Under the pieces are notes generated by a model, which saw only the letters and a program-made list of their open reading frames with translations, was not told the origin of the DNA and did no database searches. 64,000 nucleotides of DNA from Schmidtea polychroa. Its lineage: Eukaryota. The stretch is taken from assembly GCA_044892525.1 (NCBI GenBank), contig CM097887.1:8246001-8310000 (forward strand), written 5' to 3'. Below, piece after piece: positions 13,166 to 64,000 of the stretch. Position numbers and translations under genes: made by a program. Numbering within the stretch: position 1 is the stretch's first letter; every line of letters begins with the position of its first letter.

Positions 13166-14095
13166 TTTAGCCAAAATTTAACAAATAGAAATAAAATTAA
13201 ATTAAATGAAAAATAATGAAAACGAAACCCTTTAAGATTGGAAATAACAATAAAATAGGAAAAATATTAAATAAGATGGCCGTCAGGATTAAGCAGATAA
13301 AATCAGGAAAAAATTAATTAATAATTAACCTAGGAAAATTAAAAGAAAACATAAAAATAATAATTAAAATAGGAAAAAATACAATTTGCACACCCGCTTA
13401 ACAAAAATGGTGAAGGAATTAGTATATATATATATATATACTAAGAACTTGGTTGACTTTCCTAATGTTATTTTCCCACGACACTCGGTAACCCGTTCAG
13501 TTAGCCACAAACTACAGTTCATTCACTCTATTCACTCATTTTGTTCGAGACTTTGCAACTTCATTGCAACCGAGCTTTCCTTACGTAAATTTTATTGATG
13601 TCTATTGATACTTTACGCTTTTATTTTGTAATGTATAATCAAGGTTGATAACATAACTAAATGTATTATTCATAACGTTTTCTCTCTTCTCCACTCAGTA
13701 GTAATGGATGATTGCAATTAAGATTAATATAGGTATGAATAACCATTCTATTCAAAAGTTTTATCATAATGCTTATCGTATGGATGGGACCAGATTGAAC
13801 GGACGTTCGTGATCTGTAGGCACTTGTGCTGATGGACAGCGGATGTCCAGATATTTTGGCACATCAGGAGTGAAAATGAATGTAAATGTAAAGATTTTGA
13901 GAGAGGAATTTGAGATTGAATGAATGGACAGACTGAGGCAGCAGTTAGATCGGAATCGATATACGAGAGATAAAAAGTTCATTTTCGCCAGTCCACTTTT
14001 AGCACAACGAGTATTGGACGAGCTCAAGAATCCCTTCAATACAAGTAGCATGAGTAAAGTCTGGAAAGAGCTAGGCATAAGGGCATCGTCTAAAA

Positions 14096-16824
14096 CAGGG
14101 ATGGCGAACCTTTTTTTGACTGCGTGCCAATAAATATTATTTTTATAAAATGAAAATACATGCGTGCCAATACAAATTATTTTTATTAAATGAAAATACA
14201 TGCTTTTAAAAATTATATATAGATTCATTTCTATAATATGCTGACATGTTTTTTAATGTGATTTTTGTTGCTGAATATTTCTCGATAATGCATCAATATC
14301 CGGATCATAGTTTGACAATTTTAATGAAATACAAGCCTCCCCACATTCATCGGTAAGTCTGTTTCGTACATCAGATTTTATATTATTCATAATCGAAAAT
14401 AGACTTTCACAGCTATACGTTGATGAAAATATTGTTAGAATAGCTAAAGACAATTTCTTCATCGCATGAAATGTTTCTGGGAGCGAACACCATGTCTTCA
14501 ACAACATATTATTCATGTTTTCGTATTCTTCTTCATTTAATCTTTTTTTTTCATTATTTTCTATTTCTTGCCTTAACTCTATAAATTTCAGCTTCCAAAT
14601 AGAACTTGATTGAAACTCTGCCAACTGCATTTCTAAATTCTCCAACTGTAACCAGTCTAATTGATCAATTTTAGCAGTTTCCATATCAAACTTGTCTGGA
14701 TATTTAATAAAGTTAATTAATGGTTGAAATTTTTTGAAATCTTGAAATCTATTAGCAAAATTGTCTTGTATGTCACTTATAACTGTATAAAATTTATATT
14801 AATTTCATAGACTCCATGAATAGAAAATCTTTGAATGTGATCTTTCAACAAAGGAAAATACTTAAAATTATTGTTGTCAATATCGCGTTTAAATATTACT
14901 AATTTGGACTCAGAACCTTCAATAATATCGAACATTACATCAATTGATTTTCCGGGACCTTGCAATTTAATATTTAATTCATTTAAATGGTTGGAAATAT
15001 CCGTTAAAAACATTAATTTGGTGATCCAGTTATTATCAAAAAGTTCAGGAAATTCGGTTTTTTTATCATTAAGAAACATGATAATTTCATCAAAACATTC
15101 TACAAAACGTTGTAACACAAATCCTCTACTAAGCCAGCGTACGTGATTATACATTAACAATCCATGATAATTTGAACCTACCTCTTGTAGAAGCAACTGA
15201 AATTGCCGCTTATTCAAAGCTCGAGCTGCTATAAAATTTATTATTTTGGAAACAATACTTAAAATATCATCAAATGCTGCCAATCCAGACTTCGCACATA
15301 GAACTTCTTGATGAATTATACAATGAAAATTAATAATTGGATGCCCAACGTGTTCTTGAAAAAGAGATACAAAACCAGCTTGCCGTCCTATCATTGAGGG
15401 AGCTCCATCAGTTGTAATTGACACTATTGTTGATGTATCTATCTCAGCTATTTGAAACATTTTTATAACTGCATCACTAATATCTTTCCCAGTTGTTTTT
15501 GCTGATAAGGAAACTAGTGAAAGCAATTCCTCAACTATTTTTTCTCCTTTAGCATAACGAGCAATTATGGACAAGCGAGCTGAAGATGTTACGTCGGTAC
15601 TTTTATCAAGACATATAGAAAATAGCTTTGCTGAACGTATATCATTTATTTTTTTAATATTAATATTTTTATGCATTTTTAATATCCTGTCTTTAACAGT
15701 ATTTCGACTTATACTTAATTCTTCAATGCGCTTAAGTATCTGCTCTTTATTTTGAAAATCTTCAAATAAATGTGGTGCACATTTAATGAAAGCTTCTTTA
15801 ATATAATCTCCATCGCTAAATGGTTTGCTATGAGTATCAATAGTCTTGGAAACCTCAAAACTAGCAGCAACTAAATAATTTGTATGTTTCAAAAATGTAA
15901 TGAATGAGTTTGATTGGAAATTTTTATTTTTAACTTCACGTGCAATATATTCTTTTTGTTCTGAATCACTTTTAGATAAAAGAAATGAATGAGTAGTTTC
16001 ATAATGACGTTTTACTGAGGATGTTCTGCACACTACTGTATTTCCACACAACGCACACAGGGCATTGTTATTGCTTTTCATCATTCCATATTTATCAGTC
16101 CACCAATCTTGAAATGGTCTGTTAGAGCTGGCCTCTGTTTTCCTTTTCTTATTTTCTGACATTCTAAAGTTGAAACATATTATTTATTTATCATTAAAAT
16201 TGTTAATGAATTACCTTTTGAAATCAATTATAATTGTCTTCTAAAAATATAAATAGATATTTTTTATTAGCAAAAAATAATACTAAAATAAGAAAACACA
16301 ATTTTCAATCGCACTTACAGAGTTTTTAACTGAACTGAATTAGAATTAGTGAATTTCAATTTTGGCGAGAATGCAAATATTAAAACAATTTTCAATCGCA
16401 CTTACAAAGTTTTTAACTGAACTGCATTAAAATTAGTGAATTTCACTTTTGGCGAGAATGCAAATATTCATATATATATGTATGTATATATTTGAAAATC
16501 CAAAGCATACTATATTCATTTTAACATTTTTTTTATATTTAAAATTACATGTTCATACTTGTACATACCTATACCTACATACGCAAATAATATAATTATA
16601 TTTTAACGTTATGAATAAAGGCGCCAGAAATCTGGAAGTTCGTTTTTAAATAACAAAATTTATGCATTAAATTTGAATTGAGTTCACAATTTTTTCAATA
16701 TCAAAAATGCATTTGGATTAGTCAGTACATTACATATGTATGAAAATGAAAAATATTATACGTGCCAGCGAAAATTTATCTGCGTGCCACTTTGGGCACG
16801 CGTGCCATAGGTTCGCCATCCCTG
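14096..16824 (-). mobile_element. hAT transposon, Buster/Charlie/SPIN-like, full length (2729 bp)
   Basis: 16-bp TIR cagggatggcgaacct; perfect 8-bp TSD gtctaaaa (14088-14095, 16825-16832); cgtgcca subterminal motifs; 87-bp tandem duplication in the 5' UTR (~16298-16470). Confidence 0.96.
14253..16162 (-). pseudogene. hAT transposase (GTF2IRD2/ZBED8/Buster-like), one frameshift
   Basis: BED-like finger (CALC...KRHYETTH), LDKSTD, ITTDGAPSM, FHCIIHQE, VRWLSRG and STYSCESLFS dimerisation motif. A frameshift near 14790-14800 links to FYTVISDIQDKFANRFQDF. Confidence 0.93.
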
Positions 16825-24323: not shown

Positions 24324-26290
24324 ATGTCAAAAGAAAAAAGAATTGTTCACTCAAGACGAGCCTGTGCTCAAAAAGCAATTTCACTTTTATGGGCGGATAA
24401 TTCTGAGGACGAAATGGAAAACCTTGATGAGGAAGATGTTACCCTGATTGAAAATGACATTGAAATGGGTATCGACGAAACAATAATAGAAGGTATATAA
24501 GCTAGCTACAAATTAAAATCAGCATTTATGGTGACCAAAGTTTTCTTTTTATGTTTTTAGACATAGATGTTGATGAGGAATCTAAAGACTTATCTGATGA
24601 GTCAGGTACATTATTTCGATTTCCTAATATATTTCAATCGAATTCGTATATTTGTTTCTGTTGCCATTTCAGAACGTGATTCAGATGTGTTGCATTCAAC
24701 GGCTTTAAATATAAAATGGCAAAAGAAAAAACGGAGATTGTTGGAATTCCCTACACCTACAAAACTAGTAGATTTCGGAAAAGTGAAAGTGGATATTGAA
24801 CCTGCAACTGCCTACTCTTCATTTGAAATCACAACAAATTTTGAAGATCTTGTAACACTCATTATTGAACAAACTAAATTGTATGCTCAACAACAGGGAA
24901 TTATATTCGATGTAACAAGTGAAGAGATAAAAGCATTTCTGGGTATATGCATAATTATGGGCTATAACAGATTACCAAATCTCCGTGACTATTGGTCAAC
25001 TGACAGAGATCTCCATGTAGATGCAATTGCCGATGTGATGACAGTGAAAAGATTTGAATTTATCCTAAAGAATTTGCACTTTAGTGATAATGCTCTTCAA
25101 CCACATAAAGACAATCCGGAATACGAAATAGCGTACAAAGTACATCCACTAATAAACCATTTCAACAAAGCGTTTCAAGCTGCAATGGAAATGGAAAATG
25201 AAATGTCAATTGATGAACACATGATTAAGTTCACTGGGAAAAGTGCAATGAAACAGTACGTCAAAGGAAAACCCATACCCTGGGGATTCAAAATGTGGGC
25301 CCGAGCATCATCACACTCTGGATATGTTCATGAACTTGACATGTATCAAGGCAAAGTTTATAATGAAGGTCGCCAATTTGGTCTAGGTGGAAGTGTGGTA
25401 ATGCATTTGGCAAAGAGTCTTCACAACACAAACTGTATCCTGGCAATGGATAATTTCTTCTCCTCGGTAGAGCTGTTTTTCTATTTACGTGAAAACGGTG
25501 TTCAAGCTATTGGTACTATCAGAACATCACGAAAACATTTGCCAGATGATGTACGTGCTAACAAGTGTATGAAAGAGGGTGATATTTACTCTTACGTTAG
25601 CACTAATGGCAGTATCTCATCAATAAAGTGGATGGACAAACGTCCTGTCACTATTCTATCCAATTATGAGACTCCTTTTGAAACCACGACCGTTATGAGA
25701 AGACGAAGAGGTACGGCTGGTAAAATGCCTAAAACTGTTCCAAAAATGGTTTCGACGTATAATTCAATTATGGGAGGTGTTGACATTGCAGATCAACGAA
25801 AAGAGGCATATGGAATCGACCGAAGGTAAGCAAAAATTTACAGCCTCTGTGCACATTATAACTCTACATACATTGTTTGTTTTGATTTTTTTACTTAAAG
25901 GTCAAAAGTGAAGTTCTACTTACGCATTTTCTTTGACCTACTGGATATTGGTGTGTGTAATTCCTATGTCATTTTCAAGAAACTAAATGGGGCAACCTAA
26001 TGAAGGCTCTTGACTTTCGCAGATCTGTGGCGCTATCTCTCACTGGTCGTTACAGTAGTCGTCAGAGAGAGACATCCGCCAATCCTCCTTCAAAGAAAAT
26101 TCGACCGAGTAATGCTGCTTGTCCTACACCACAACATTTACCAGTATTCACAGAAGACAGAAAGCGATGCACATACTGCAGCACCTGAAGACATTATTGC
26201 CGCAGCAACATTAAATGCAGTTCATGTGATGTTCACCTCTGTCTGAATGCTCAACGTCAGTGTTATTCACTTTATCATATAATTGACTGA
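24324..26290 (+). pseudogene. piggyBac transposase with three introns (exons 24324-24492, 24561-24605, 24673-25825, 25901-26290)
   Basis: GT-AG introns of 68, 67 and 75 nt keep the frame. DDD motifs SIDEHM, AMDNFF, MGGVDIADQ; C-terminal Cys-rich domain CTYC..CSSCDVHLC..C..YH. One frameshift at ~25990 (G4 run) and an in-frame TGA at 26186-26188. Confidence 0.9.
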
Positions 26291-34700: not shown

Positions 34701-35064
34701 AATATACAATCTTTGCTCTTCATTTTCATAAGACTATAGATCAATAAACTCAAGTTAAATGTATTCATAGAAAATTAAGAAAGAAATTGCAAATAATAAA
34801 CAAAAATTGGATAAAAGATTTTAATAGAAAATTAGTATCTAAAATAAATTAACAAGAATTTACCATGGAAATAAATAAATTAAATTACCAAAATAACCTA
34901 TTGCAATTTGCAAATCTCTATCAAAATCTGTCATTAAATATATTATACAAATTTTAATATTAGATTTAATAAATTATCTTTTCGCATTATTATGTAAATC
35001 TTTAAAACGAGCGTGAATTAAAAAATTTGTTTAAATTTAAAAAAACGTTTTAATTTAACTCACG

Positions 35065-37170
35065 ATGGATCAAGAGTGGCCAGATTTAACTCTAGCAAAT
35101 CAAGCTAAAGTGTCGAAGAAAAATGTCAAAGCAACTATCGAAAAGGAAACCAAAATCGTAAACGTTAACAAAGAGAAAAAAGAAACAAATTCCGATGCAA
35201 AAACTCAATGCAAACCAGTTGACATAAAGACTGCTATACGGGAGTTCAACGAGAAGTTTGCTTATCAATATGATTTTGATTCTAGTCGGGAATATAAGCT
35301 AAAATCTCATTGTTCAGTGTCAAAAGAATGCGCGAGCACCGGAGCATCAGTCGAAGAATCCTTTAAAAGCATGATGTTTTTGGAAAGCATCATTTGCGTT
35401 CGAATGAATTTATTGTACTTCTATTTTCACGAAGCCAATCTAAGAAAAGACTCATATATGATAAAAAATATGGATAGCAATGGCTGGATACCATTGAAAA
35501 TAGTGATGGATTTCCCTCGTTTGAAGAGAACCAAACCAACATTTAAAGATATTTTCGATGTCTGCCAAAAATTATTGCTACCACCATTTACAATCCAGTA
35601 TGGATCTGTAGGAAATTCCTATTTAGAAATCGATGAAACGAACAGCTTGATCAGAAGAAATGACATGGAAGACTTTGAATCAACATTTAGAGGATTTGAA
35701 ATATCAAAAGAAATTGATTTGAAAATGAGATCAGAGTTGCCATTCCCAAATTACTCATTTTCCTATTTTGAAACCGAATTAGAACCTTTAATAGAAAGAT
35801 TTATACCAGATGTTATACCTCAAATAAAGGTGGAAGAAAATGATGAAAATATAACCTTCGAATTTGGAGCGAACGAGGAAACTACAGTTCAATCTAAGAA
35901 AATTTACCGAAAAAGACGTACAACAATGGAGTCACAAAGCGACTTAGATGAAAGTAATGTTTATTTAATAACATTGAACGGTAAAACTGCGGAATGGCAT
36001 GAAATAAGCGACAGTGATTCTTTTGTCGAACAAACATATCCTGATTCCGAAAGAAGAGATTTGTTGAAGAAAAGTTTGCAAGAAACATTCAACATCAGAA
36101 GCAGATATCAATCCTTTTCCAGTTGTTCGACATACGACAGTAATGATGAATCTGATTCATACTTACCAGATTCTCAGCTTAGTATTGAAGAAAAAATGTC
36201 TTTGATCAATACAAACAACAATCCTTCGGTACTAATTCAAAAAATGAAACCTTTAAGTCAAGAAAATCAAGAATATGACTTCCTGAATGAAGGCGTCATT
36301 AGTTCATACCACAACCCAATTGATATGTTTAATTCCAACTTTTTGCGTATTCCTAACTATAAATCCGACGAATTGGATAAATTATTGGAGAACATTATAT
36401 TTGAATACAAGAAAAGCTATGTTCCGCAGGAGCTGACAAAAACTATAAGGAAACCTAAAATTCGACAGACCATTACAAAAACTAGGAACCATTTGAATTT
36501 TTACGATTCTGAAAACGACGATATTCGATCAATTGATGATCCGATGATGGGATATTACTTGAATAAAAATAGAAGAAAAAGAAATTCATCGTCCAGCAGT
36601 TATAGTCAATATCCCGACTCAGGCAAATTATTGTCAAAGGGTTTAGAAATTCCACATCAAAATCATCCTGGAGAAAAGCTATTATCGGATGAATTTAAGC
36701 TTAATCTTTATTTAGAATTCCGAGAAAGTGCCTTAAAAGATAGAAAATTGACCGGCTGTGGCCGATCTGCTGATATGAATGCTCTATTACGTTTCTGGTC
36801 GTTTTTCTTGAGAGAAAACAGTCAGAAAAAGATGTATCGGGAATTCCAGGAATTAGCTTGGGAGGATGCTGAACACGGATATCGCTATGGTGTTGAATGC
36901 GTTTTCCGCATGTTTAGCTATAAGCTTGAAAACAAAGACAGATTCAATATGGATGAATACAAGGACTTCCAAAATAATGTATTGAAAGATTTGAAAATGA
37001 ATAGCCTGTATGGTTTGGAAAAATTCTGGGCATTAAGGCAATATGGTAATCTAACACTTGAAGCCTTACCTGAAATCGAGGAGAAACTCAAAGAGTATAA
37101 AACTAAAGAAGATTTTCGCAAGAACTTTGTTCCTCCACAAGGATTTTACGGCTATAAACTTCTATTTTAA
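35065..37170 (+). CDS. LARP1: La-related protein 1 (La motif + DM15 cap/TOP-binding domain), intronless, 701 aa
   Basis: La motif [38 protein letters not shown]15 repeats [44 protein letters not shown] and [10 protein letters not shown] closely match LARP1 family consensus. Confidence 0.93.
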
Positions 37171-40317: not shown

Positions 40318-42389
40318 GTAGCACGTCAATTGCGCGGACGCCAATTGCGCGGGTCCAACTGCGCGGTAGGCAATTGCGCGGGTAGTCAATTGCGCGGCCG
40401 TCAACTAATTATTATTAAATAAATTATTAAATGGGCTTACAGTTGCTATGAGGCCTCAATTTGCGCGGCCGTCAATTAATTATTATTAAATAAATTATTA
40501 AATGGGCTTACAGTTGCTATGAGGCCTCAATTTAGGCCATCAGGCCTGCCTAGCCATCGAGCTGCAACTGTCAAGGCGGGTATATAATGCGAGTGTTTTT
40601 TCACAATTGACGAAATTGTAGTCATGTCTTTAGAGTTTGGTAAAAGCGAGAGGGGCAACAAAACTTTAATTTATAAGAATTTCGAATACGTTAAGGAATG
40701 CGAAAATATGTGTGGTACTACCGCATGGCGTTGCAGGTTCAACAAGAAGTTCAAATGTAAGGCTCGAGTTGTAACCGATGACAGTAAAGTTGTTTGTGAG
40801 AAACAACCGGAACACACGCACAGTGGTAACGTCGCAACAGCAAAAGCACGAAAGGCGGTAGGAGAGATGAAAGAAATGATGGGCGCGTTGATGGCTACAC
40901 CTAGTTCCTCACAGGCGTCCGTTTCGGTGGCACTAGATGATCACGTGCTGATGGCTTTGCCTAAACGATCGTTGCTGACTAGGACATTGCAGCGAAAGCG
41001 TCAGAAGATTACGAAAGAAACCAACAACGGTCAAGAGCTACCGGCTATTCCAGGCGATCTTCGCTTTGATATACCTGACCGATTCAGGCATATGATTCTG
41101 TACGACTCAGGACCAGGTGATGATCGAATAATCCTGATGGGCTGTTTAGAGCTTCTAGATGAATTGGCTCGTGCTGATGTATGGATTGCCGACGGGACAT
41201 TCAAAGTCGTCCCGAGCATTTTTTTTTCAACTGTACAGCTTCCATTTCAACTTCTCTTCCGGTATCAACCCTGCTGGTCTGTACTGCCTCATGACGAATA
41301 AGACGGCTGAAACCTACGGACGCGTTTTCGCTGAAATTCGCAACCTCGTTCCTTTGGCTTCTCCAACGACAATTTTGATAGACTTCGAGAAAGCGGTGAT
41401 GAACACAATGAGTCTATCGTACCCGTACGCAAGAGTCACAGGTTGCTATTTTCACCTCTGTCAAAGTGTTATTCGTAAGGTCAACGTGATAGGACTAAAG
41501 ATTACCTACGAGAGTAACGATGAGGTCCGTGGGTACGTTCGATGTCTTTCCGCACTGGCGTTTGTTCCCCCCGATGATGTGGTGGAAGCTTTCGAGTTGT
41601 TGGTTGAAACAATGCCTGCCGATATCGATCATCTGGAAGAGCTCACGTCTTTCTTTGAGTTAACGTATGTCCGCGGACGTCGACGTCGAGGACGGGCCGA
41701 AGTGTATGCTGCAGCGATGTTCCCAATATCTATCTGGAATCAGCACGCCGGTGCATGCGAGGGAATTGCAAGAACAACCAACTCAGTTGAAGGATGGCAT
41801 CACGGCCTTCAGACACTGTTCCAGTGTAGCCATCCGACTGTCTGGACGTTCATGGCAGGATTAGAACGGGACATGAATCTACAAAAGTCAAAGTACTTGC
41901 AAGGGGCAACCGGTTTGGTGCAGCCGTCTCGTAAGACGTATCGTCAACTCAACGATCGCGTTGTAGCAGCTGTAGCAGCTTATGGTCGTACGGACATTCT
42001 GACATATTTACGTGCCATTTCACATCTGTCGCACTGTTAATTAACATTGATATTCATACTTACTAGTATTATTTAAATTGGACTTTTATATTGATATTGA
42101 TATTTGTTTGATTAATTTTGTGATAGTTTATTTAGGTAATATATAACCCACTTGATTTTGCAAAAGTGTGATTTTTGGTTATTTGTGACGAAAAATAATG
42201 AAATAAATACCATATAAATATAAATAACAAAATTTGGAAACAAGGGAAAAATGTAATTAACCACCTCATCAGTTTACTATCCGCGTAGTTGGACCCGCGC
42301 AATTGACGCCCCGTAATTGACTACCCGCGCAATTGACGTCCGCGCAGTTGGACCCGCGCAATTGACGTCCGCGCAGATGACATGGTTTC
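40318..42389 (+). mobile_element. Mutator-superfamily transposon, Phantom type with repeat-array TIRs (2072 bp)
   Basis: TIRs built from 5-7 copies of a ~15-bp (gt)caattgcgcgg motif; 9-bp TSD tttattatc / tttattata; 71-bp internal tandem duplication at 40391-40532. Confidence 0.88.
40624..42040 (+). pseudogene. FLYWCH + MULE DDE transposase (~471 aa), single +1 frameshift
   Basis: FLYWCH (LIYKNFEY...TAWRC...CKARV...HTH), WIADGTFK, LIDFEKA, GCYFHLCQ, RTTNSVEGWH. A T9 run at 41219-41227 needs T8 to restore the frame. Confidence 0.9.
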
Positions 42390-47048: not shown

Positions 47049-47970
47049 AATACACAATGCTTTAGCGTGTTTTGCATTAAATACTTTAATTTCCGGTTAT
47101 TTTTTCGATGAAAAATAATTTAATCTCGACGGTCCTGATGGATGTATTGGAGAGATTTTAGCAAAGACCTATTTATATCTTCCAAGCGAAACTTTGAAGG
47201 AGAAAGTCCCATGATTTAGGTAGGTTTCTCTTTCTACTATGTACTTTTTCTGGTGTTTCCATCCAGCAGAATGAACAAACCGCGGTGTCAATATGTTTTC
47301 CAGGAACATCTTATTCCCAATCATCGCAATTCACGCCGTTATCTTTACACTTTTCAGTAAGATATTGCGAGCATTCATGTTAGCAGCAGTGATTTAGAGA
47401 CAAAAAATTCTAGCGCGACGGGTTTATGCGAATAATAGTCAATTCGACATTGTTCCCCAAATGAAAACAGCCATTTTGACAACCTGGAATGGAATTAATC
47501 AAAATACCCAATACACAATGCTTTAGCGTGTTTTGCATTAAATACTTTAATTTCCGGTTATTTTTTCGATGAAAAATAATTTAATCTCGACGGTCCTGAT
47601 GGATGTATTGGAGAGATTTTAGCAAAGACCTATTTATATCTTCCAAGCGAAACTTTGAAGGAGAAAGTCCCATGATTTAGGTAGGTTTCTCTTTCTACTA
47701 TGTACTTTTTCTGGTGTTTCCATCCAGCAGAATGAACAAACCGCGGTGTCAATATGTTTTCCAGGAACATCTTATTCCCAATCATCGCAATTCACGCCGT
47801 TATCTTTACACTTTTCAGTAAGATATTGCGAGCATTCATGTTAGCAGCAGTGATTTAGAGACAAAAAATTCTAGCGCGACGGGTTTATGCGAATAATAGT
47901 CAATTCGACATTGTTCCCCAAATGAAAACAGCCATTTTGACAACCTGGAATGGAATTAATCAAAATACCC
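47049..47970 (+). repeat. Apparently perfect 461-bp tandem duplication (47049-47509, 47510-47970)
   Basis: Both copies start aatacacaatgc and end caaaataccc; no differences seen by eye. Confidence 0.92.
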
Positions 47971-51874: not shown

Positions 51875-54800
51875 TATTTTTTTAAACTAGAACTAATAAC
51901 TCCTCGTTAGCCATTATAGGTTCTCTTTTGTTCTGGCTTCGCAAATAATATCGATTCACTTCAATAACTTTAGTCTTTCAACTCACACATAATCTAAATT
52001 GCCAATATTTTAACTTTTCGCTTTAGTTTCAATAAATTTATTCTAGCACAAATATTCCTATCAATACAGATTTCTCTTAAATTCACGATGCAACAATAAT
52101 TAAATTTCTTTTTAATAAACTCTTCCGCAACTTTGATCACGTCCGGCTCACCAAATATCTTGGGTATATTGTAGTTTGTCAGTGATTATAAGGCTGTGTA
52201 GTACTAGTCTGACTCCGAACGTGTTATTTAATAACAATGTAACATATGTATTGGACTTCATCTTCTATTTACCAAAACGCTAACAAGGTAAAGGAAGTTG
52301 AGAACGTTTAAAGAGTAAGTCATCGACAACGAAAATGATAGAACTGAAGTTGAAGATATTGTCGACAACTTAAGCCCTTCCATCAGCAGCTTAGTATTGA
52401 AAAAGAAAATCAGTCAAGCAGTAGTTCCAAGACATGGAGTTCACCTACTAACAAATTTTCATCAACACCATCAATATCAGCTGTAATCAAACTCCGCGAG
52501 TGTGATGGTGAAAACTAATAATCATTTGGTGCTTAAGAGAATAGTTGCTATAGGCAAGGTTTACCTTATTCCTTAATTTACCTTACAAAAATTTGACAAA
52601 AATTCCTCTAGGTGTCAACAAGTAGATGAATTAAATTTGTTATGCTTTCTTAGAATTATTTTTCTTATCACTATTTCTAGTGTTAACTATGACCATATAT
52701 GAATTTTTGTAAAAATGAATCGCAATATAAACGGAAAATGATATTTATGCGGTAGAAAATGTTTTCGATGCCAAATTAATTCAGAGAAGCAAGGCGCATT
52801 CATTTAAATGCTGAGCAGAAAAGTTTATCAATATATCTATGTGAATCACAAGAATTTAATTAAGAAATAAGAAATCTAAAAGTGTCAGATTTTCATGAAT
52901 TTAAATTTAATATCAACGTTCTTTGAAATATAACGCCATAAAAAATAAATGTTTTCAATTTAATTTCTATGATAAATTATTAGCACAACTACCCATAGTT
53001 GTGGTATTTTGTAAAGGAATTTGTGCATTTTTAGGTTGGTATTTCCCATTTATTTGTTTAAATCTACTCATTTTTCATCATTCTTTCATTATTTTCACTG
53101 CCAATTTGTGATAAAAATAATTCAACATTTTGCATGTCAATAAACAAAGGTTAAACATAATGATTTCACAAAAAACTGAAAGAAATAACAACGAAGTGTG
53201 ATACTAATCACAGTGTTTTGTCGCGATTCAATATCATTCCACTTTATTGTCATTTCAAACTGTTACAAATTTAAATGTTTTCGATTGAAACCTTAATATT
53301 ATAGGAATGGTTCGAATTTAGAATCAAAACTTGATTAAAAAATTTGTCATGAAAATGTAAATTTGAATACAAGATCCAACTCGGAAAGCCTGAATTATAG
53401 TATTATATTTATCTTTTGGTTTCACCTTTGACCTTTTTTTAATTCAATAATTTAATTTATAACGATATTTCGGCACAGTCTTTATTAAATGTGTATTTCA
53501 ATCGTCATAGTTATTTTAAATATTATTGAAAATCTGGAATCGAGTATAAAAGGAAAACGGCGGTTTGCGCTAATAACATATATTATAATGAATTTTTCGA
53601 TGAGAAAGGAACAATGATGAATTAGGGAGAGTGATTAGTGGTAACAAAAATATTGTGTGTTGCGAAAAGGAGACAGGGTAAGGAAATTGATGCGTAGAAA
53701 AAATTTTTACCTTTACGGTATAACAAGACGGCTTAACAACATTTAAAGTGGCGCCTTGTACTTCACATGATTAAAATATTAACTTAAGCTAGCATTAGAT
53801 ATTTGCATTTATTAAAAGTACTTATTTTAATAAGTAACTAATCCTTGTATCATTAGTGTGACAGACGTACTACAGTAATTATGGACACGCAGAGTTATCA
53901 TTTAAAAATCTAATTTAGAAATTGTGACTAAGTTATAATAAAAGATCTGTTAACTTTCCCCTCCAAATAAATATAAAGAGATAATTGTAAACAATGTCAT
54001 ATAGAATCAAACCTAATATAATTGTTGGGGTTAGTTGGTTGTCGGTCATTTATCAAATCAATAACTACTATCTGACTCCGATCGTGTTTTATTCAATGTT
54101 GGGCTGAGTCGAAAATTTAATCGTTGAAAAATAAGAAAGTAGGGAAGTAGAACATTAAGAAAAATAAAAATAAAATAAATAAAATCAGAAATAAAATAGA
54201 ATAAGGTATAAGGAAAATAATAATTAAGACATAAGAATTAAAACAAAAAATAAAATTAAGAAAAGATTAAAATAGAACAAGTTGACAAATAAATAAAGAG
54301 GAATTCAAGAAATAATAAGGAAATTAAGGAAATAAATAGAAAAACATATTAAAAATAAAGAAAATAAGGAGAAAACAACCTAAAAACAAGAAAATTATAT
54401 TAAATTAATAGAAATAAGCGGTACTCAACTCTGATTGGTCCGCACAAATAAGAATTTGATATATATACAACTACCAAAAACATTAAATTTACTGTTAACC
54501 CCGAGCATTTCATAGGTAAGAAAAAATGTTTACTGTTTCTACTGTTAACCCCGAGCATTTCATAGACATCTACAACTCACGGAGACTTATTTCAAGGATC
54601 AGCAATACAAGTAGAGCAACAGTTAATTCGAAAAACTTCACAGCAATTCGAACTCAGTCACAGCAATCGACATTCGACGAATTATCATCAGACTAATTTG
54701 GAACGACTAACGTTAATTTTCCGATTCAGCCTAATTCCATAGTAAGGGATTTTTATTTATGATATTGTTTTTCGAAGTTAATAGTAAATATGTATATTTA

Positions 54801-54991
54801 ATGAGTAATTAAACTTTTAAATTTAACCAGACTCTCTTTTCATTTGATCCTGAATAACGATTTTGATAAAGTAAATAATTTAAATGTTTAAAAGTATTTA
54901 TTGGTAACAGGTGAACTCTTACATAATTTTTATGGATATTTATTTTGAAGTGATAGTTTTATGATTTCTAATATTAACGAGAAACGTGGCG

Positions 54992-55109
54992 TTGAGATAC
55001 TCCATGTCATGGTGTGAGGTGCCTTCGGGAGCTCAGCCGGTGGACATGGAGTATTTCAATCACGCAGCTAGATTGGGCCGAAATGTGAAGGCTTCTTCAC
55101 GGGTCCAAT
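54992..55109 (+). other. Two adjacent strong predicted hairpins
   Basis: ttgagatactccatgtc / gacatggagtatttcaa stem with an inner cTTCGg loop (54992-55059), then attgggcc / ggtccaat with an inner gtgaag-gctt-cttcac (55072-55109). Confidence 0.55.
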
Positions 55110-56400
55110 TGCTGAAGGACTTAAAATCTGTCAGAGTACCGAAATATAGACCGAAAGGAAACCTTATGAAATTTTCGAAAATAGGATATGTGCTTCACAG
55201 CGACTGAGGGAGTTCTCCTATTAACTCTGTATTGTCCAGAGTCGTCTTATAAGACATTCATGCCACTTCTGTCTATAAATCCGAACTTACCATGTGGGGG
55301 AAGATACCATTAAACATCCATCGCTGGTTTTTCTAACATATCGAGAAGTTGAAATTGCATTCGGTAGATTTTTGAAAAAGTAAATCTAATTTAGGTCATC
55401 TCTTTCAGATGCGACATCCAAATCTTAGCATATGATGAGGAATTTACAATAAAGGAAAAGTAAAACATAAAACCACAATAATACTGTATTCAATCACATA
55501 TATTAACAAAATCTGGTAATACCCATTGAATAATTTTCATGCTGTCGCGTCGAAATATCCACTACTGAAATATGCTTCATAGAGTCTAGTTGGCTGGTTC
55601 GTAGAGATCTTCCATCGTTCAAAAGCATCCAATATTGAGGAAATTACGAGTCGTAGTAAATAAATCCAACATCATAAGCTCAGATGGGAATCGACACGCG
55701 ATGTAACATTTGCAGTTCGCTCAGTACGGTTGATAGTTACAGATAAAATTTCCATCGAATAGGCACCCATACATACAGACATACTGCTAACATAACTATG
55801 AGTAGCGTCATCCGGTCAGAAATATGCATGAGAAACAGCAGAATCATTCCGAATGCCTCTCACCGCAGGGAATGCCGCCATGTGTCACCCTCTCTAAGAT
55901 TCTTAGTGTGTGAGTAGTAATCAGTGGTCCTATTAGATAATGCTGACATGAGATGTGACTTCCAGATGACTGACTCTTAAATTTCACTACTGATAAAGGT
56001 CATTCGTACCACTAAAAAGATAAGCCAAAATAACCAGTAACCGACTACTAAGATAAGAGACTCTCTAAAGTGCACTCATTAAAGATAATTTTGCTTAAAT
56101 TAAATATTCTAAATAAAAATCGAAATTGTTGAAGGGGTATTTTAATTAATAACCGAAAATTCAAACCAAACTTTATAACTAAACCATAGGAAGTTTCACC
56201 TAAGTGTTGTAGAGGTTTATCGTAATTCTGATTAGATGTTACAAATAATAGTAGTAGCCTTTGAGCCAAATTTAAATTAACTAAAGCATCCACAGGAATT
56301 TTTGGGTTATAAAATAGCTAGTAATATTGTACTTAAATTTCTCATATTCCATGTAAACTACGTATCGCAATAGAAAACTAAATCCGATAACAAATTATTA

Positions 56401-58261
56401 TGTAATTACAATGTTTTTTTACGATGCCATATTTCTACGACGATATCACCGTATGGTATGGATAAGGGGTGATCATAAAATAGTGACGTATAGTTTATAC
56501 GAAATTACGAGTTGTTACTTATTCCGCTACTCGAGGTAAGGGTGCAAGTTTTTACTAGTCGCATTTGGTCCAAAAACCTTATTTTGCATTAGAATAACAA
56601 CAAATAATCAGCGAAATTTAAACGAAGTGTAGTATAGTGTATTTGTAATGAAATAGGTTTATTCACTCCGGCATGAACAAATCCGTAAATTGCCTTTATG
56701 TGCGATAGATAGAAATCCAACTCGAACGCGATAGACGAAAATTAAAATTTTTACAAATAATTTGCATTCGTCAGGGAAGCAATCAGGGCGTTGAGGAATA
56801 ATTTTTGTAAAGGATACGTAAAATATTAGTAATCAAGGGTGAAGGGAAGGATCCTGTTTCATCGACTCGTCTTGTTTTCTTCCAGCACTAAGTATCCAAT
56901 AGCGAATAAACCGTATATCTGATCCGAAATTTTTAGATATAGTCACCATAGTTTTCTTCTTTAGCCATCCATTATGTTATCAAACAACAAATCAGCTTTA
57001 CGTCCCTGCTTCTCCTGCTCAGATAAAAATGCAGTGATTAAAGATCTTCAAGCCCAGATCGGTCGATATAAACGAAAAATCGACGAGCTGGAAGGGACAT
57101 GGTTTAGTCCCGCTCGGATGAAGGAGATCCAAAAGAAGCTCGATCGTAGCGAGCATTGCCGGGACGCGCTAATATCTGAGAGCCGTGCCCAAAGAAGTCT
57201 AATCAGAGAACAATCCGAGGCACTGCATAAGGTTTACGTGCAGGCGGCTACAACCCGAAAGATCGTGCAGATTCCCATCCGAGAGGCCGATGACATCTTT
57301 CCGCCTCATCACAACCTTTCCTCGAATCCATCTCCACCGTTCAAGAGACCGTGCCGAGACTGCGTCGAAACCGAATGGTCCCCCAAGCGTCCAGATGTTG
57401 TCATCACGGGTACCAGTAAGCCCCCCACTGCTAGTCCATCTGTATCAGTCACCCTTCTACAAGTGGCATCTTCAAACAAACCCAAGCGCAAACAACTCTC
57501 TCGAGCAGAGCGCAAGAAGAGACAGCGCGAGCGCGCCACTGCAAAGCCAAACATCCCATCAACAGAGGACTCAACCAACGGTGGTAACTCTCACGTGTCC
57601 ATCGACCTAACAACGGGACCCTCAGCGCGAATCATATCAGCCGCTGGCGTAAGGTGGGAAGAGAACGCTTCCGAGTTTTTCAACCTCGACGAATTATTCG
57701 CCGACACTGAATGGGAGAAACAATAAAACCCCAGTGGCGGTCAGGATGAGGAACAAGGATCCGATCTATGTTGATTATGATGTTTTCTCTTCTTTCGACA
57801 AACATTAGTAAAGTGTACAGCTGAATCCTGGTGTCATAACGTTGAAATTAATAAATCTTGTTGTCTTACACGTTTTCGTTCATGAATAATTAGACTTTAA
57901 TTAAGTGGGTTGAGTAGAGAACCCGCAAGATCTAGTGAGAATTTCCCAATTTGCATTCAGCGAATTCCTGATAGGTGGTTGTGTAAGGAAATGGACGTAA
58001 GCCCTTCTATCGGCAGTCGTGAATGGGAAGTCGAGGCCTCAGCAAGGAGTAGTTTTAAGGCAGAAGCTCACCTGCTTGCTGGCGTCTCGCCTGCATAGTG
58101 CAGTACCAACGTGAAGTGATTCACGGGCACTATGTTGGAAGAAAGTTATGTGGGGTTTCACTCCAGGTTGACAAATCGGTGGCACCTTTTATTCGAGATG
58201 GACAATCAACCCTTAGACCCGCCAACATGGTAGAATGGTCAGCCGAGGTGTGACCCCAACA
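56401..58261 (+). mobile_element. 5' LTR (~1.86 kb) of a complex Ty3/gypsy element, containing an ORF
   Basis: Starts TGTAATTACAAT (cf. TGTAATAACATT at 17990) and ends CCCCAACA just before a PBS; same layout and length as 17990-19837. The left boundary is inferred. Confidence 0.65.
56974..57726 (+). CDS. Intact 250-aa PCFSC/EGTWF-family protein (coiled coil, CxxC, basic tract, acidic C-terminus)
   Basis: Open ATG-TAA frame, GC-richer than its flanks, with motif-level conservation across two diverged paralogues in the window. Confidence 0.85.
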   Translation: MLSNNKSALRPCFSCSDKNAVIKDLQAQIGRYKRKIDELEGTWFSPARMKEIQKKLDRSEHCRDALISESRAQRSLIREQSEALHKVYVQAATTRKIVQIPIREADDIFPPHHNLSSNPSPPFKRPCRDCVETEWSPKRPDVVITGTSKPPTASPSVSVTLLQVASSNKPKRKQLSRAERKKRQRERATAKPNIPSTEDSTNGGNSHVSIDLTTGPSARIISAAGVRWEENASEFFNLDELFADTEWEKQ

Positions 58262-58268
58262 TGATTTT

Positions 58269-58286
58269 TGGGGGCTCAGCCGGGAT
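58269..58286 (+). promoter_or_regulatory. Primer-binding site complementary to tRNA-Pro
   Basis: TGGGGGCTCAGCCGGGAT matches the canonical tRNA-Pro PBS TGGGGGCTCGTCCGGGAT at 16/18 and lies 7 nt after the LTR-terminal CA. Confidence 0.85.
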
Positions 58287-58603
58287 CTACAATCGATCGA
58301 AATTTCTATTAACGAATGCGAAATTCACCGAGATTTTCATAAAAAATTAAAGGGATTTATCACATCGATTTTCTGTTTTCGACCGACCATTGCTTGACGA
58401 ATGCCAATTGACTATTGATTATTAAATTATATTAGGAACTAAGTAGAGAAAATCAAAATGTGGATAATAGAAAAATTAAGGATATATATAAATAAAGGAG
58501 ATAAAGTAGTCAAATTAAATAATTAACAATGGTTAAAGAAACCAATTAACGAATTAACTATTAATTTACTACATATTATTAAAACATTACTTTTCCAACA
58601 GCT

Positions 58604-59089
58604 ATGACAGAATTCGCGAACCAAATGCAACAACTGCTCAAGTTTATCGATATAGAAAACGACTCCCTAACAACACTGACGCATAAAAGAGAAAAAATCA
58701 ACGCGATATTACTGCAAGCAATCGGACAAACACCAGTCGTACCTAATCATCTGATATTAGCCACAGGCCTAAGTCGCCCAGATGGAAAAATAAACCCCGA
58801 AACCGTATATCAGTGGTATCAAGAGAGATTGAACCACCCAGCATTAAATCTAGATTATCAGCGTCTAAAAGACTCACTAAATACAATACCAGATGCAATC
58901 GAACAAAAAATACAGGAAAAAGTTAACCAATTACGAACTTGTATAGCCTGTAAACTCCGTCCTATTCGCGTATTATTCTTGCCGTGTGGACACCTCAGTC
59001 ACTGTGAAGAGTGTGTAAAAGACCTAAAAAGATGCACGATGTGCAAATATGAAATAAAAGAGACCCATATGGTCTATTATGGCGAATGA
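58604..59089 (+). CDS. 161-aa protein with coiled coil and C-terminal IAP/MDM2-type C3HC4 RING finger (putative E3 ligase, no BIR)
   Basis: CIAC-x11-CGH-x3-CEEC-x6-CTMC; a pyrimidine tract and AG lie directly before the ATG; AATAAA at ~59194. Confidence 0.85.
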   Translation: MTEFANQMQQLLKFIDIENDSLTTLTHKREKINAILLQAIGQTPVVPNHLILATGLSRPDGKINPETVYQWYQERLNHPALNLDYQRLKDSLNTIPDAIEQKIQEKVNQLRTCIACKLRPIRVLFLPCGHLSHCEECVKDLKRCTMCKYEIKETHMVYYGE

Positions 59090-59705
59090 AACGGCCGGCG
59101 ATGTAACAGCAAGTATACGATGTTTGAACAAGAATGCATGAAATTGTTGAAGTAACACGTACTGTTAATGATTCAATCTTTATGTTTATGATAAATAAAT
59201 TCGTCTTTAAAAAGTTTTGATGATTAGGACTAATAAAATTTGCATGACGAATGAATATTTGCGTGTTTGTTTTGTTTTATTTTTTTTGTGGAATCAAATG
59301 AAGAGAGGGTTGAATAACGTGGAATTAGTCCCAATATAGACCGCAGGGGTACAAACCGAGCCACCTTCGGGCGGTACGTCTTATTGCAAGAACCCGTTGG
59401 GAGGGGATAACTGATCAACCCAAGTAAGAAGCGTAGGGCGGGGTACCATCGCATATGATGAGAAGTTTTTGCGACATGACTGATCACCATGCAAATGTAG
59501 AAATGGATCATCGCGATCGTCGTGCGTTTTGAGCAAGGGGGGAAAGGGGAAACACTCCCAAGCGGTAAAGATTAAGTCGACAAATTAAAAGTAGACAGAG
59601 AAAATGGTAAACTAGAGTAAAAGAAGAAAAGAGAAATAGAAGCATGCAGAGCGAGGAATATTGAAGCCGAGCTGTCGAATAATCCAGCCGGTCAAGGAGG
59701 AAGAC

Positions 59706-60179
59706 TGAGCTGTTGAATAGTGCCAGCCAGTCGTAAGGTCGAGTTGTGAAAAGTCCAACCGATCAGGAAGGAGGAAGATTGAGCTGTTGAATAGTGCCAG
59801 CCAGTCGTAAGGTCGAGTTGTGAAAAGTCCAACCGATCAGGAAGGAGGAAGATTGAGCTGTTGAATAGTGCCAGCCAGTCGTAAGGTCGAGTTGTGAAAA
59901 GTCCAACCGATCAGGAAGGAGGAAGATTGAGCTGTTGAATAGTGCCAGCCAGTCGTAAGGTCGAGTTGTGAAAAGTCCAACCGATCAGGAAGGAGGAAGA
60001 TTGAGCTGTTGAATAGTGCCAGCCAGTCGTAAGGTCGAGTTGTGAAAAGTCCAACCGATCAGGAAGGAGGAAGATTGAGCTGTTGAATAGTGCCAGCCAG
60101 TCGTAAGGTCGAGTTGTGAAAAGTCCAACCGATCAGAAGGAAGAAGATTGAGCTGTTGAATAGTGCCAGCCAGTCGTAA
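59706..60179 (+). repeat. 74-bp tandem array (6 full units + 31-bp partial) in the retroelement leader
   Basis: Units start at 59706, 59780, 59854, 59928, 60002, 60076 and 60149; a degenerate half-unit lies at ~59668-59705. Confidence 0.97.
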
Positions 60180-60834
60180 AGACCTAGAAAAGCGAGAGAT
60201 AGCAGTTAAGCTACAATGAGATAATATTTAAATTACTAGTGATATGGAATATTAAAGCTAGCTAGAACAAATGGAATGTAATTTTGAAAATTCGAGTTTA
60301 GAGAGGAAATAAACGAGCTCGTGGAAAAGAAAATAAGATTATAAGGAAAAAGGAAAGGGAAGAAGGAAACGAATTAAAGAGATAATAGAAAATAAAGAAT
60401 AGATGAAATGATGATAATGAGTAAAGAGGAAAGTAACTAACTAATTAAAGGGATCCCAGTGAAGTAGAGAAACTCTACGGAATATTTTTTTTGGTTAAAC
60501 CGGGAAAATGCATTTTATTGGTTCCAGAGTAGAACCGAGCGTAATAATAGTGAATATGAAAAGTAAAATAGCGACAACAGCGCAAAAGGATTAGGAAAAT
60601 GAAAGGGGGGTAATAAGCAGAGACCGACAACGACCTATTTTTACTATAATTGATAACGAATAGATAATTATTACGACTTTATAGATAATTGTTACTACCC
60701 CATATAGATAATTTAAAATCGACGGAAAATACGGGCTGATGGGATATTATAAACCGCAGACAGGATTTCACAAAAGATAGGGGAAGCACAAACAGAAACC
60801 TAAAAGGTGTCTGTTTTTGAATGTTGTAGAAAGA

Positions 60835-63800
60835 ATGATGAAGTCGTGTAAGCAAATGCAACACGAGATCATTTTTTCATTTTAGATATCAAGCCAATCC
60901 AGCCAACCAAGACAATCCAGAACCTGCATAAAGGAATTCGAAGAAATCGACAATCAACCAAGGATAAATCCATTCAGAACCCGCACCGAGAGACACAGCA
61001 ACCGGAAGACTCCCGAACGGAAGAAGTATTAGCAGCCATCTGCCAAGGATTAGAAACACAATCAGAACCGAACGCGACCAATTCAATAGCCGCTAATTAC
61101 CAAGAAGCGTAAGAAAGGAATCACGGATAAACCCAATCTTAGATCTTCAAGTAAGCCAGGAGACGTATTATTTTCAGGAGACGAATTACAACAACTCAAA
61201 AGAGGACGATCCATTAAACATCAAAGAGGAATATCACAAGGATCCAGAAGAACCAATCAAGTACCCATATTTGACCAAGAAAATCTCGGATATACCCCTA
61301 GTCGATCTCGAAGTAGAGAAAGTCTGTCCGATATCACTAATAGTTTAGCAACGTCAACCGAAGAATTACCAGCCCAAAGTTTAGTCACATCGTTAGACAA
61401 TTTAAAAGAAACAGACGAACCTAGAACACCAATCATGACGAATGTCGTAAAAACCGACGAGTATAAAGAGAAGTTCAGAGGAGAACCGTTCAACGGAAAT
61501 GCAAACAAGCTAGCAACGTTCATAACTAATTTTGAAGTTTATATCACTGTGTGTGGATGGACACCCGAAGCAATTAGTAAAAGGATGCCGTTGTTTTTGT
61601 GCGATAGTGCATTAGAGGTATATTTAGAAGCTAAAGAGAGAGACACGAAATTAGAAAAGTGGGAAGATATTAAAACATTCCTGAAGAAAACCTTCGGAGC
61701 CAGTAAGCCAATCAACCAGGCGTTGGGCGAACTAGCAAATAGGAAACAAAGAGCAAACGAATCGATAACATTATATGCCAGTGAATTGCGGAGATTAGCG
61801 AAGAAAGCAATGAATGGAAAATTACCCGAAGAAAATCTGATCGGTTATTTCATAGAGGGATTACGCCGAGAAGAAGTAAGAGCCTCAGTAGGTTGTCAAA
61901 TGTGCAAAACATTAGAGGAAGCCATAGATTGGGCTACAAGATGCGAGCTCCACCTTCCAGCTCAAATGAATATTATGCAAGAGGAGGGAAGGATAGCGAC
62001 AGCAATAGCGAAAGCGGATAACGGAGATAACAACAATCAAGAACCGAAAATGAATCAATTTATACCAGGAGCGCACCAAATTTTCAAACCACCACAAGGA
62101 CGATCAAACGGGAATAATGGTAATCGTAACAACCCGAATAATGAGAACAATTTCAATAATCGGCGAAATATGAACGATAACAAGCAGTGCCGAACATGCG
62201 GTAAACCAGGACACTGGGACAGAGATTGTTATAGAAATTCAAATTGTAATCGTTGCGGACGGCGTGGACATACCGAAAATGTATGCCAATTGCGAGGCTG
62301 TTTTAACTGTGGTCAGCCAGGTCACATCTCCAGAGATTGCCGAGAAAGGGGCCAACAACAACGACCACCACAGCGAAATAATAATTATATAGCGAATCCG
62401 CAACGACAAAGTAACCCTAACGAAGGAAAACAAATGAACGTTATGCAGGAAATTTCGCAGATGAAACAGATGATGCAACAAATGATGAGACCAAGACAAG
62501 AATCAGCACCACAACAAACCCAGAATATACGTATGATGAGGAGTACCGAAAATCTCAACAATTATGAAGTGCATCAACATGTACAAGAATGGCAAAGGCT
62601 ACAGGCCGAGGAAGAGAGGATAAAACAAGAACGCAACCAACAACGACAAGAACAACCATTGCGAATAAATATGATGAAGTTAGTAAAAGACATGAAGAGC
62701 CAGTATTGCTACAATTACGGGAAAAGCCCAAGGGTAGTACCCATGACTGAACCAGAAAAAGTAAAGGAAATAACAACGGAAATGAAAACAGAGAATTCAA
62801 CCACGATTTCAAAAGGAAACCAGAGAATTCAGAAAATATTCTGGAAAAAGATAAAGGATAAAATCGAAAAAGAACATAATAAAGCGAAAACCGAGACAGA
62901 AGATGAAAATAACAAGAGCAAGGAACAAACCAGTCAACTAAACCACCAAATGCTACAAGAATCAGAATCAGAAGAAACAACAATATTCGAAAGAAAGAAA
63001 CTAAAGAGAGTACCAAGGATGAGAAACTTGCAAATCAATATGATGAAAAGGACAAAAGATGAAGCATCGTCAGACGAAGAAGAAGATTATGTAAGTAGTT
63101 TGGGTGGAGAAATACTACAGCCGAATGAAATAAGCGAACCCCCAAAAGGGGAAATCAAAGAGGAAGAAAGCGGAAACGAGATAACCAGTGAAAGTGAAGA
63201 CGAAGATATCGAAATAAAGTTGAGAAAAGCAAGGGAGGAAGCGATAAAACAGGTAGCCGAAATACTCCCAGTAGTAGTGAGAAACCAAGAGTTCATCGAC
63301 GTAATACCATTCAGGCGATTCGTGCAAAAAGTGATGAAATTGGAAAGAAACGAGAAAGATCTAATACCAAACGAGGAAAAATCAATTATAAAAAATTATA
63401 TGGAAAAAATGAAGCAGGCCGATACCACGCGGTATGTAATAAAAATTGGAACGAGTAGAGGACTTGAAAGAATGTGGATAAAAAATACAGTCACCGACGA
63501 ACTTTTCGATTGGATACGAGAACATTTGGGAAGTTCGAGAAAGAAAGAATATCTGTATCAATACCAAGGAGAACAGATCAAACCAGATATGCACTTAGTA
63601 GATGCACTAATATGGCCAGGAGAAACGCAAATACTGAAGTTGCATAAAGAAAAACAACCAGCCAACCTTTACGATTGGGCTAAAGATGCCAAGGCAGAAT
63701 ATGATTTTAATATCAAATTGAAATTAGAACAAATAAAACAATGTACTCTGAGACGAAACCTGGATAAGCTGATCAAACAAATTCAAGAACAAGTAGAAGA

Positions 63801-64000
63801 CAACTGGGATTTACTCATCACCAGACGAGCCCCAGCCATGTACGAACTAATGAGCCGGTTGCGAGATACAGAAATGCTCCGAATGAGTGATTGGAGAACC
63901 ATAAATTTGATCCACAAATATGGAAGGTTAAAAGAAACCCAGCCACAGAGGTTGGAAATAACCATATGGTTACCGAACGAAGAAAAACGACGAATAAAAA
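60835..64000 (+). CDS. gag: Ty3/gypsy Gag polyprotein, spliced 5' end (exons 60835-60847, 60886-61108, 61143->64000), runs off the window
   Basis: Capsid-like region (FNGNANKLATFITNFE...GW...RKQRANESITLYASELRRLA) and three CCHC knuckles at 62188-62340. The frame is open from 61090 to 64000 and the first in-frame ATG without splicing is 61435. The ORF track misses it because it has no stop in the window. Confidence 0.9.

Follow-up and report, generated by a model that had tools for sequence, protein, structure and literature searches.

The window analysed here is a stretch of 64,000 nucleotides (nt) from Schmidtea polychroa (GenBank assembly GCA_044892525.1, contig CM097887.1, positions 8,246,001 to 8,310,000 of the forward strand), located on contig C3 of the 781 Mb host genome surveyed. 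Its right end is occupied by a young, env-bearing and Burro-like Ty3/gypsy element of ~30 kb, which starts at 54097 and extends, in window numbering continued past the last nucleotide, to 84498. The two long terminal repeats (LTRs), at 54097-58262 and 80333-84498, are 100% identical over 4166 bp, and a 4-bp target duplication is present. The leader between the 5' LTR and gag is the subject of this analysis. The Gag protein of this element is likely to be extended at its N-terminus from a non-AUG codon, ACG, and not by means of two tiny introns, as a first-pass annotation of the same DNA had proposed.

The domains identified by Pfam follow the order gag, CCHC knuckles, fusion glycoprotein, protease, reverse transcriptase, RNase H, integrase and ankyrin repeats, with a RING-MATH accessory open reading frame (ORF) behind the polyprotein. 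Many copies carry a single open frame of 4732 codons. The long ORF of the window copy, open from 61090, ends near 72159 after 3690 codons, ahead of the ankyrin part. The features around the start of gag are the following.

60834..60873, + strand: predicted conserved RNA hairpin, covering the upstream ATGs, the donor-like site GTAAGC and the start of the T-tract
60835..60885, + strand: upstream ORF of 16 codons, whose stop is the TAG of the acceptor; its length is kept, its peptide is unconstrained
60848..60885, + strand: "intron 1" of the first-pass annotation, with donor-like GTAAGC and a strong T-rich acceptor
60886..61434, + strand: corridor devoid of ATG between the acceptor and the gag start codon, measuring 549 nt in the window and 659 nt in long copies
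61017..61112, + strand: remnant of ORF-A, a 60-62-codon ORF from a conserved ACG at 61017, broken here by 57-nt and 52-nt deletions near 61026 and 61052/3
61052..61053, + strand: junction left by the 52-nt deletion, which is bounded by GT..AG and shows 1 nt of microhomology; likely the scar of a splicing event that reverse transcription made permanent
61109..61142, + strand: "intron 2" of the first-pass annotation, whose 3' half consists of Gag-frame codons from the ACG
61123..61434, + strand: N-terminal Gag extension of 104 codons, whose first codon is an ACG in the context A at -3, G at +4
61435..64000, + strand: Gag (Retrotrans_gag and CCHC knuckles in Pfam), the start of a gag-env-pol polyprotein continuing past the window

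An exact gag anchor occurs 142 times in the genome. The 117 close copies were examined, and the addition of distant ones brought the total to 174. Frames and leader lengths were counted in 161 copies, and ratios of nonsynonymous to synonymous differences (pN/pS) were determined on 19 subfamily representatives. Rows L207, L050 and L123 were excluded from the 161-copy corridor and frame counts, L207, L209 and L043 from the 174-copy ACG survey, L050, L060 and L105 from the shared-variant count and the TG-keeping shuffle, L239 from alignment A1, and L252 from the pN/pS of the sister family.

The tetranucleotide ACGG is found 104-107 codons before the gag ATG in 173 of the 174 copies, with A at -3 in 170 of them, in the gag frame in 170 and with this frame open in 161. 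The ACG is hence a conserved near-cognate codon in strong context. No AUG intervenes between this codon and the gag ATG, and the extension is under coding constraint: pN/pS amounts to 0.24 (0.07-0.67) over the seven codons that begin with the ACG and to 0.47 (0.36-0.60) for the whole extension, with 0.15 for the gag core and 1.2-4.7 for the other two frames. An independent count of shared variants supports this constraint (p 1e-10). The gag frame cannot come from further 5' in 41 of the 161 copies, because a stop is present in frame at most 10 codons upstream of the ACG. In the most distant subfamilies, the donor-like GTAAG is missing and an extra in-frame codon is placed between ACG and AG. 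The extension is basic and Ser-rich, and gave no Pfam match at E 1. According to the excerpted text of PMC3542737, non-AUG starts need a strong context and go with leaky scanning. We regard translation of the extension from a non-AUG start as likely. The first-pass annotation was right in giving Gag an N-terminal extension before ATG 61435, which is Met-less; its assembly by two 34-38-nt introns is not supported.

The ACG lies in a corridor that is remarkably poor in start codons. In the window, no ATG is present between the acceptor and gag where 6.9 are expected; over the 161 copies, 0.06 are observed per copy versus 8.15 expected from base composition. The corridor is free of any ATG in 160 of 171 copies. 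GTG (0.3 versus 3.5 expected per copy) and TTG (1.3 versus 3.6) are depleted as well. The last ATGs are located within ~30 nt of the acceptor, both in this family and in its sister family, and the corridor begins at the acceptor.

Within the corridor, upstream of the gag ACG, a second conserved ACG opens ORF-A. This ORF is 55-63 codons long in 93 of the 161 copies, 43 codons in 28 and of other lengths in 35. Its pN/pS is 0.67 (0.52-0.88), and the 132 nt ahead of it are neutral in all frames. The predicted product has an acidic front followed by an amphipathic, partly hydrophobic helix, and was modelled as one long helix (pLDDT 81.7, pTM 0.49). It showed no Pfam match at E 1, no Atlas match and no PDB sequence match (best E 0.81). 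On balance, the conservation pattern suggests that ORF-A encodes a real protein. In copies L233-L237, ORF-A was apparently lost by deletion between short repeats, and the hairpin-acceptor block and the gag ACG were kept.

The block at 60835-60885, at the 5' border of the corridor, shows a mean identity of 95% among the representatives, versus 76% just behind it. GTAAGC is present in 158 of 161 copies, and no indel occurs within the block. The predicted hairpin has a folding z of -4.18, not reached by any of 200 shuffles, and 97.7% of the cells in its alignment are paired. Variants shared by at least two sequences were found in none of the 28 paired columns versus 6 of the 12 unpaired ones (p 2e-4). 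The end of the T-tract and the terminal AG lie outside the stem, yet they are kept. No Rfam match was obtained in 58200-61600 at E 0.5. The upstream ORF measures 16 codons in 161 of 161 copies; a conserved peptide was considered for it and rejected, as its pN/pS of 1.28, with a wide interval, indicates no peptide constraint. Position 60885 is indeed a good acceptor, as the first-pass annotation had it, with a strong and conserved T-rich tract. From its conservation, the segment 60848-60885 is better interpreted as providing the acceptor for a gag mRNA than as an intron of 38 nt.

Several further observations were made around this block. In the 150 nt before the upstream ATG (near 60690-60790), one frame has a pN/pS of 0.51 (0.31-0.83) although it contains stops. 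Across subfamilies, this region retains short ORFs in which stop and start overlap (TGATG or TAATG), and the repeat motif ATAGATAATT in the same region is common to the sister family. Eight copies of the hairpin core are located within 0.63 Mb of contig C1 (152885240-153510155), as a local cluster or tandem array.

The sister family was found by searching with a representative, which gave generic gag and knuckle matches. The best non-knuckle match is P0002, a member of a second large family of the same genome, with 45% identity over the N-terminal gag match and shared upstream motifs. In the P0002 family, a T-rich acceptor is followed by 483-505 nt that are devoid of ATG in all 20 copies, where 7.7 would be expected, and gag is open for 103 codons before its ATG in 19 of 20, with a pN/pS of 0.48 (0.25-0.92; 19 copies). 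Each of 19 copies has ATT and ATA codons in the context A at -3, G at +4, and these would have to serve as start. Judged from these alignments, the leader layout is common to both families, and the start codon is not.

The route by which ribosomes would reach these codons involves the upstream part of the element.

54097..58262, + strand: 5' LTR of 4166 bp, with its 3' partner 22 kb past the window end
54516..54565, + strand: intron-like GT..AG segment of 50 nt in the LTR, its donor placed after a short ATG-free stretch behind a TATA-like box; putative source of the leader exon
58604..59089, + strand: accessory RING-finger ORF (Pfam zf-C3HC4_3, E 3.7e-11), with an acceptor-like AG 2 nt 5' of its ATG
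59620..60211, + strand: array of 74-nt tandem repeats with variable copy number, from repeat analysis

Plain scanning of a genome-length RNA cannot reach gag, because 111 ATGs lie between the LTR donor region and 60885. A spliced leader followed by leaky scanning is favoured, because the corridor starts at the acceptor and other ORFs have an AG near their ATG (five of the six other ORFs checked, at 10 nt or less before it). In the mechanism proposed, a short leader exon from the LTR donor would be joined to 60885, removing 6.3 kb together with the 111 ATGs. Ribosomes would then cross the corridor by leaky scanning and initiate weakly at ACG 61017 (ORF-A, ~62 amino acids) and at ACG 61123 (long Gag polyprotein), and then at ATG 61435, which would give the short form. 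Use of the acceptor may be damped by the hairpin over the donor-like site and T-tract, or this hairpin may serve packaging, so that unspliced genomes remain. Entry by acceptor 60885 is reasonably probable by itself, and the whole sequence of a spliced leader with leaky scanning over ACG, ACG and AUG has, in our estimate, an even chance of being right.

Inside the LTR, at 54470-54565, the 3' end of the 50-nt GT..AG stretch repeats the sequence directly 5' of its donor. A 250-codon ORF at 56974-57726 of the LTR has an acceptor-like AG 5' of its ATG and no Pfam match. About 2.3 kb behind the 3' LTR, at 86822-90765 in continued numbering (L033:2822-6765), another LTR is 81-85% identical to that of the element, apparently without gag behind it.

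Several points weigh against this mechanism. Its RNA and translation steps are inferred from genomic sequence, and among the matches listed, the contigs of runs guessed to be RNA hold no joint or loose end at 60885. The conserved GTAAGC 38 nt 5' of the acceptor is not fully explained by it. No compensatory changes were found in the hairpin, so that the structure is a predicted one. When the sequence is shuffled with its low TG count preserved, the absence of ATG does not reach significance (p 0.08); part of the lack of ATG is therefore a general lack of TG. The P0002 family shows no conserved in-frame ACG in 19 copies. No hairpin helping initiation was detected downstream of either ACG (z 0.93 and 0.60); a stem-loop ~14 nt downstream of a non-AUG start is described as enhancing, not required (PMC3542737, in its excerpted text). 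The constraint on ORF-A is weak, and the absence of stops in it partly reflects the choice of open copies and representatives. It is shortened or shifted in 65 of 161 copies and wholly deleted in five distant ones, and is therefore dispensable in cis. The codon-bootstrap intervals of pN/pS take no account of the relatedness of the copies.

Initiation at the ACG might also take place on unspliced RNA, by internal entry, shunting, reinitiation after the 16-codon ORF or an internal promoter. The block would in that case be a packaging or translation hairpin, with splice-like ends that are incidental. The folding z of -4.18 and the confinement of variation to the loops fit this explanation, as do the 16 codons of the upstream ORF in 161 of 161 copies, the short stop-start ORFs just upstream and the lack of a splice joint among the matches listed from the contigs guessed to be RNA. 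However, the T-tract and terminal AG are kept outside the hairpin, and the sister family, which keeps an acceptor at the same place, folds only weakly there (-3.5 kcal/mol). We judge this explanation rather unlikely.

It is improbable, in turn, that the 38-nt "intron 1" is a real intron of the leader, spliced on translated RNA only, which would change the upstream ORF from 16 to mostly ~31 codons and tune reinitiation at the ACGs without extending Gag. The GTAAGC of 158 of 161 copies, the absence of indels in the block, a GTAA 60-61 nt before the acceptor in 20 of 20 sister copies and a 41-nt GT..AG deletion, suggesting that introns near such a size are removable, would agree with it. Nevertheless, 38 nt falls under the planarian short-intron peak of 45-85 bp (PMC13594981, excerpts), the donor is predicted to be paired, and the spliced ORF would range from 15 to 87 codons. 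Moreover, the segment is never lost among 229 intact cores, though nearby segments of 41 and 52 nt are.

Flatworms trans-splice a leader that ends in AUG. If such a trans-spliced leader, or an exon that contains an AUG, were joined to AG 61142 or to another AG close by, a non-AUG start would be unnecessary, and AG 61142 is present in 170 of 173 copies. Against this, coding constraint already acts on the codons that precede AG 61142, this AG belongs to an Arg codon and has disappeared from three copies, and by frame arithmetic an AUG at AG 61142, or the 13-nt first piece, misses the gag frame. This route is very improbable.

The model of the first-pass annotation joined GTAAGC..TTTTAG at 60848-60885 (38 nt) and GTAAGA..CTTAG at 61109-61142 (34 nt) as two introns, and its coordinates and lengths are correct in the window. 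Joined together, the remaining pieces of 13, 223 and 292 nt do give 176 codons, the middle one being free of stops in the frame used. Both donors match the consensus. The whole 176-codon frame is however open in only 7 of 161 copies, the window and six other young ones, so that removal of the segments does not leave one conserved open frame. The window copy is set apart from others by 1-nt indels: an additional nucleotide is present at ~60929 in 24 of the 30 nearest copies, and "intron 2" measures 34 nt in 112 of 161 copies and 33 nt in 40 of 161. The donor-like GTA of this second segment is missing in 16 of 173 copies, and its AG in 3 of 173. In distant subfamilies, where the 33-nt form is found, a stop lies in frame just upstream of it, and the most distant ones have no donor there.

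The pattern of constraint is the reverse of that expected for coding introns: the 3' half of "intron 2" has a pN/pS of 0.24, and the first 132 nt of "exon 2" are neutral in all three frames (0.92-1.02; 19 representatives). A conserved peptide from this first part was rejected on these values and on the variation among copies, and an antisense ORF on the stops in distant copies. In longer copies, "exon 2" contains additional segments of 57 and 52 nt. Its middle peptide is therefore a patchwork of neutral sequence, part of a different ORF and a tail that is out of frame. The open "exon 2" of the window would be an accident of 1-nt and 52-nt losses in the youngest subfamily. The GT..AG pair is not beyond chance as a pair: the 22-kb interior contains 19 GTAAG sites, and 13 of these, six of them in one tandem repeat, are followed by a YAG at a distance of 30-44 nt. 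A long T-tract is present only at the first of these pairs, "intron 1".

No copy was found without either of the two segments; pattern searches for shortened forms gave 0 matches versus 229 intact "intron 1" cores. The junctions 60847^60886 and 61108^61143 were looked for in contigs of five runs guessed to be RNA (X1, X6, X7, X8 and X9) and of X3, and no joint was seen at either intron among the matches listed, where only X1 covered the sites, its contigs running straight across them, and contigs drop rare forms. Within this scope, the missing junctions and the 1-nt indels between copies are the outcome that the first-pass annotation had itself named as refuting. One X1 contig (L072:2523-3339, depth 36.8) skips 815 nt from the leader into gag; its CA..AG ends led to its rejection as a splice, and the skip is not seen in the DNA-type run X3. 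A host with very short introns, as had been deduced from the two segments, is not required; the short-intron peak of S. mediterranea is at 45-85 bp (PMC13594981, excerpts). Both a long and a short Gag are plausible as the annotation suggested, and their origin from spliced introns is not supported. On the genomic copies, the two-intron model is largely refuted for the family, and its splicing as a new trait of at least the youngest subfamily is hardly credible.

A different, probable trace of splicing is provided by the deletions. Compared with the long copies, a 52-nt segment is missing in 26 of 117 copies and an overlapping 41-nt segment in five, both with GT..AG ends and 1 nt of microhomology. 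From the GT and AG frequencies in the leader (product 0.004), the chance of a deletion with such ends is ~0.008. Such ends are absent from the 57-nt deletion and from two deletions outside the tandem repeat that occur in one copy each. The 52-nt deletion occurs on three flank haplotypes, two of which match undeleted copies on both sides, and one such haplotype has differences 3 nt to the left and 6 nt to the right of the junction. Recombination could shift one deletion between haplotypes, but hardly so in this 3-nt/6-nt case. Both lengths are near the short-intron peak of 45-85 bp in S. mediterranea (PMC13594981, excerpts). These deletions probably reflect occasional cryptic splicing of packaged RNA. 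In contrast to the 52- and 41-nt segments, the 38-nt block at 60848-60885 never gets lost.

Burro, or GYPSM1, designates giant gypsy-like LTR retrotransposons of planarians (PMC6431247). As described in the excerpted text of that paper, they resemble the present element in their ~30 kb, long LTRs, a polyprotein of ~4,700 amino acids, CCHC gag, a fusion glycoprotein between gag and pol, the order protease, reverse transcriptase, RNase H and integrase, ankyrin repeats, accessory MATH/TRAF and RING ORFs, and tandem repeats. MATH and RING are seen in the accessory ORF here. BIR and Bcl-2, which belong to the Burro cargo described, gave no Pfam match at E 0.01 in the pieces scanned; the element is Burro-like in its length and domain order. 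A search for homologues of the longer proteins found none. The excerpted text of PMC6431247 contains nothing on introns, splicing or start codons of Burro, and that of PMC8532177 demonstrates BURRO1 expression, which rises when piRNA silencing is lowered, with nothing on splicing. A literature search outside the original Burro paper and all supplements, where ORF starts may be annotated, turned up no account of Burro leaders that are spliced or use ACG starts.

A close parallel in function is the glyco-Gag of murine leukemia virus (MLV), where leaky scanning yields a minor, N-terminally extended Gag from a non-AUG codon that lies in frame before the gag AUG and has a strong context (PMC5778647 and PMC3542737, excerpts). 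There, the start is a CUG, and the extension carries a signal peptide and is read from unspliced RNA; the present case has an ACG, a basic Ser-rich extension, a likely entry by the acceptor and a Ty3/gypsy lineage. In poleroviruses and luteoviruses, the small ORF3a, discovered through its conservation, is likewise initiated at an ACG (A at -3, G at +4); it precedes the capsid ORF on a subgenomic RNA (PMC4422679, excerpts). The C' protein of Sendai virus starts at ACG as well, with later starts reached by leaky scanning (PMC3542737, excerpts). Unlike ORF3a and C', which belong to unrelated RNA viruses and for which no sequence likeness is claimed, ORF-A is dispensable in many copies. By analogy, the leader would work like those of glyco-Gag and ORF3a, and it is a member of neither group.

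In retroviruses, hairpins of the 5' leader hold the major splice donor beside the packaging signal. The stem-loop predicted here is similarly conserved, with its donor-like GTAAG just upstream of gag; it differs in the strong acceptor that directly follows and in the lack of an Rfam match.

As a tentative general picture, giant planarian Ty3/gypsy elements may express their entire gag-env-pol polyprotein from a spliced mRNA purged of AUGs, on which two successive ACGs and one AUG would give a hidden helical protein of 62 residues and both a long and a short Gag. The hairpin would set the unspliced share, and cryptic splicing of packaged genomes would repeatedly have cut the small gene from young copies. 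If true, this would revise the N-terminus given for the polyprotein of two high-copy families and bring to light a small gene that is not annotated. It would also account for the translation of gag behind a 6-kb leader with 111 ATGs. Non-AUG initiation in the style of glyco-Gag would be extended from retroviruses and plant viruses to an animal Ty3/gypsy lineage, and the 52-nt GT..AG deletion on three haplotypes would be evidence at the DNA level of occasional splicing of packaged genomes.

Outside the element, the window contains a host LARP1-like gene (35059-37167; La and LARP1 HEAT domains) in one open stretch of 703 codons. Remnants of DNA transposons are located at 3868-5145 (Tc5/pogo-like, DDE_1), 13776-16183 (Spin-doc zinc-finger type), 24567-25826 (piggyBac-like, DDE_Tnp_1_7) and 41159-42037 (MULE, with inverted ends at 40322-40398 and 42308-42384). 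An exact tandem duplication of 461 nt is present at 47049-47970.

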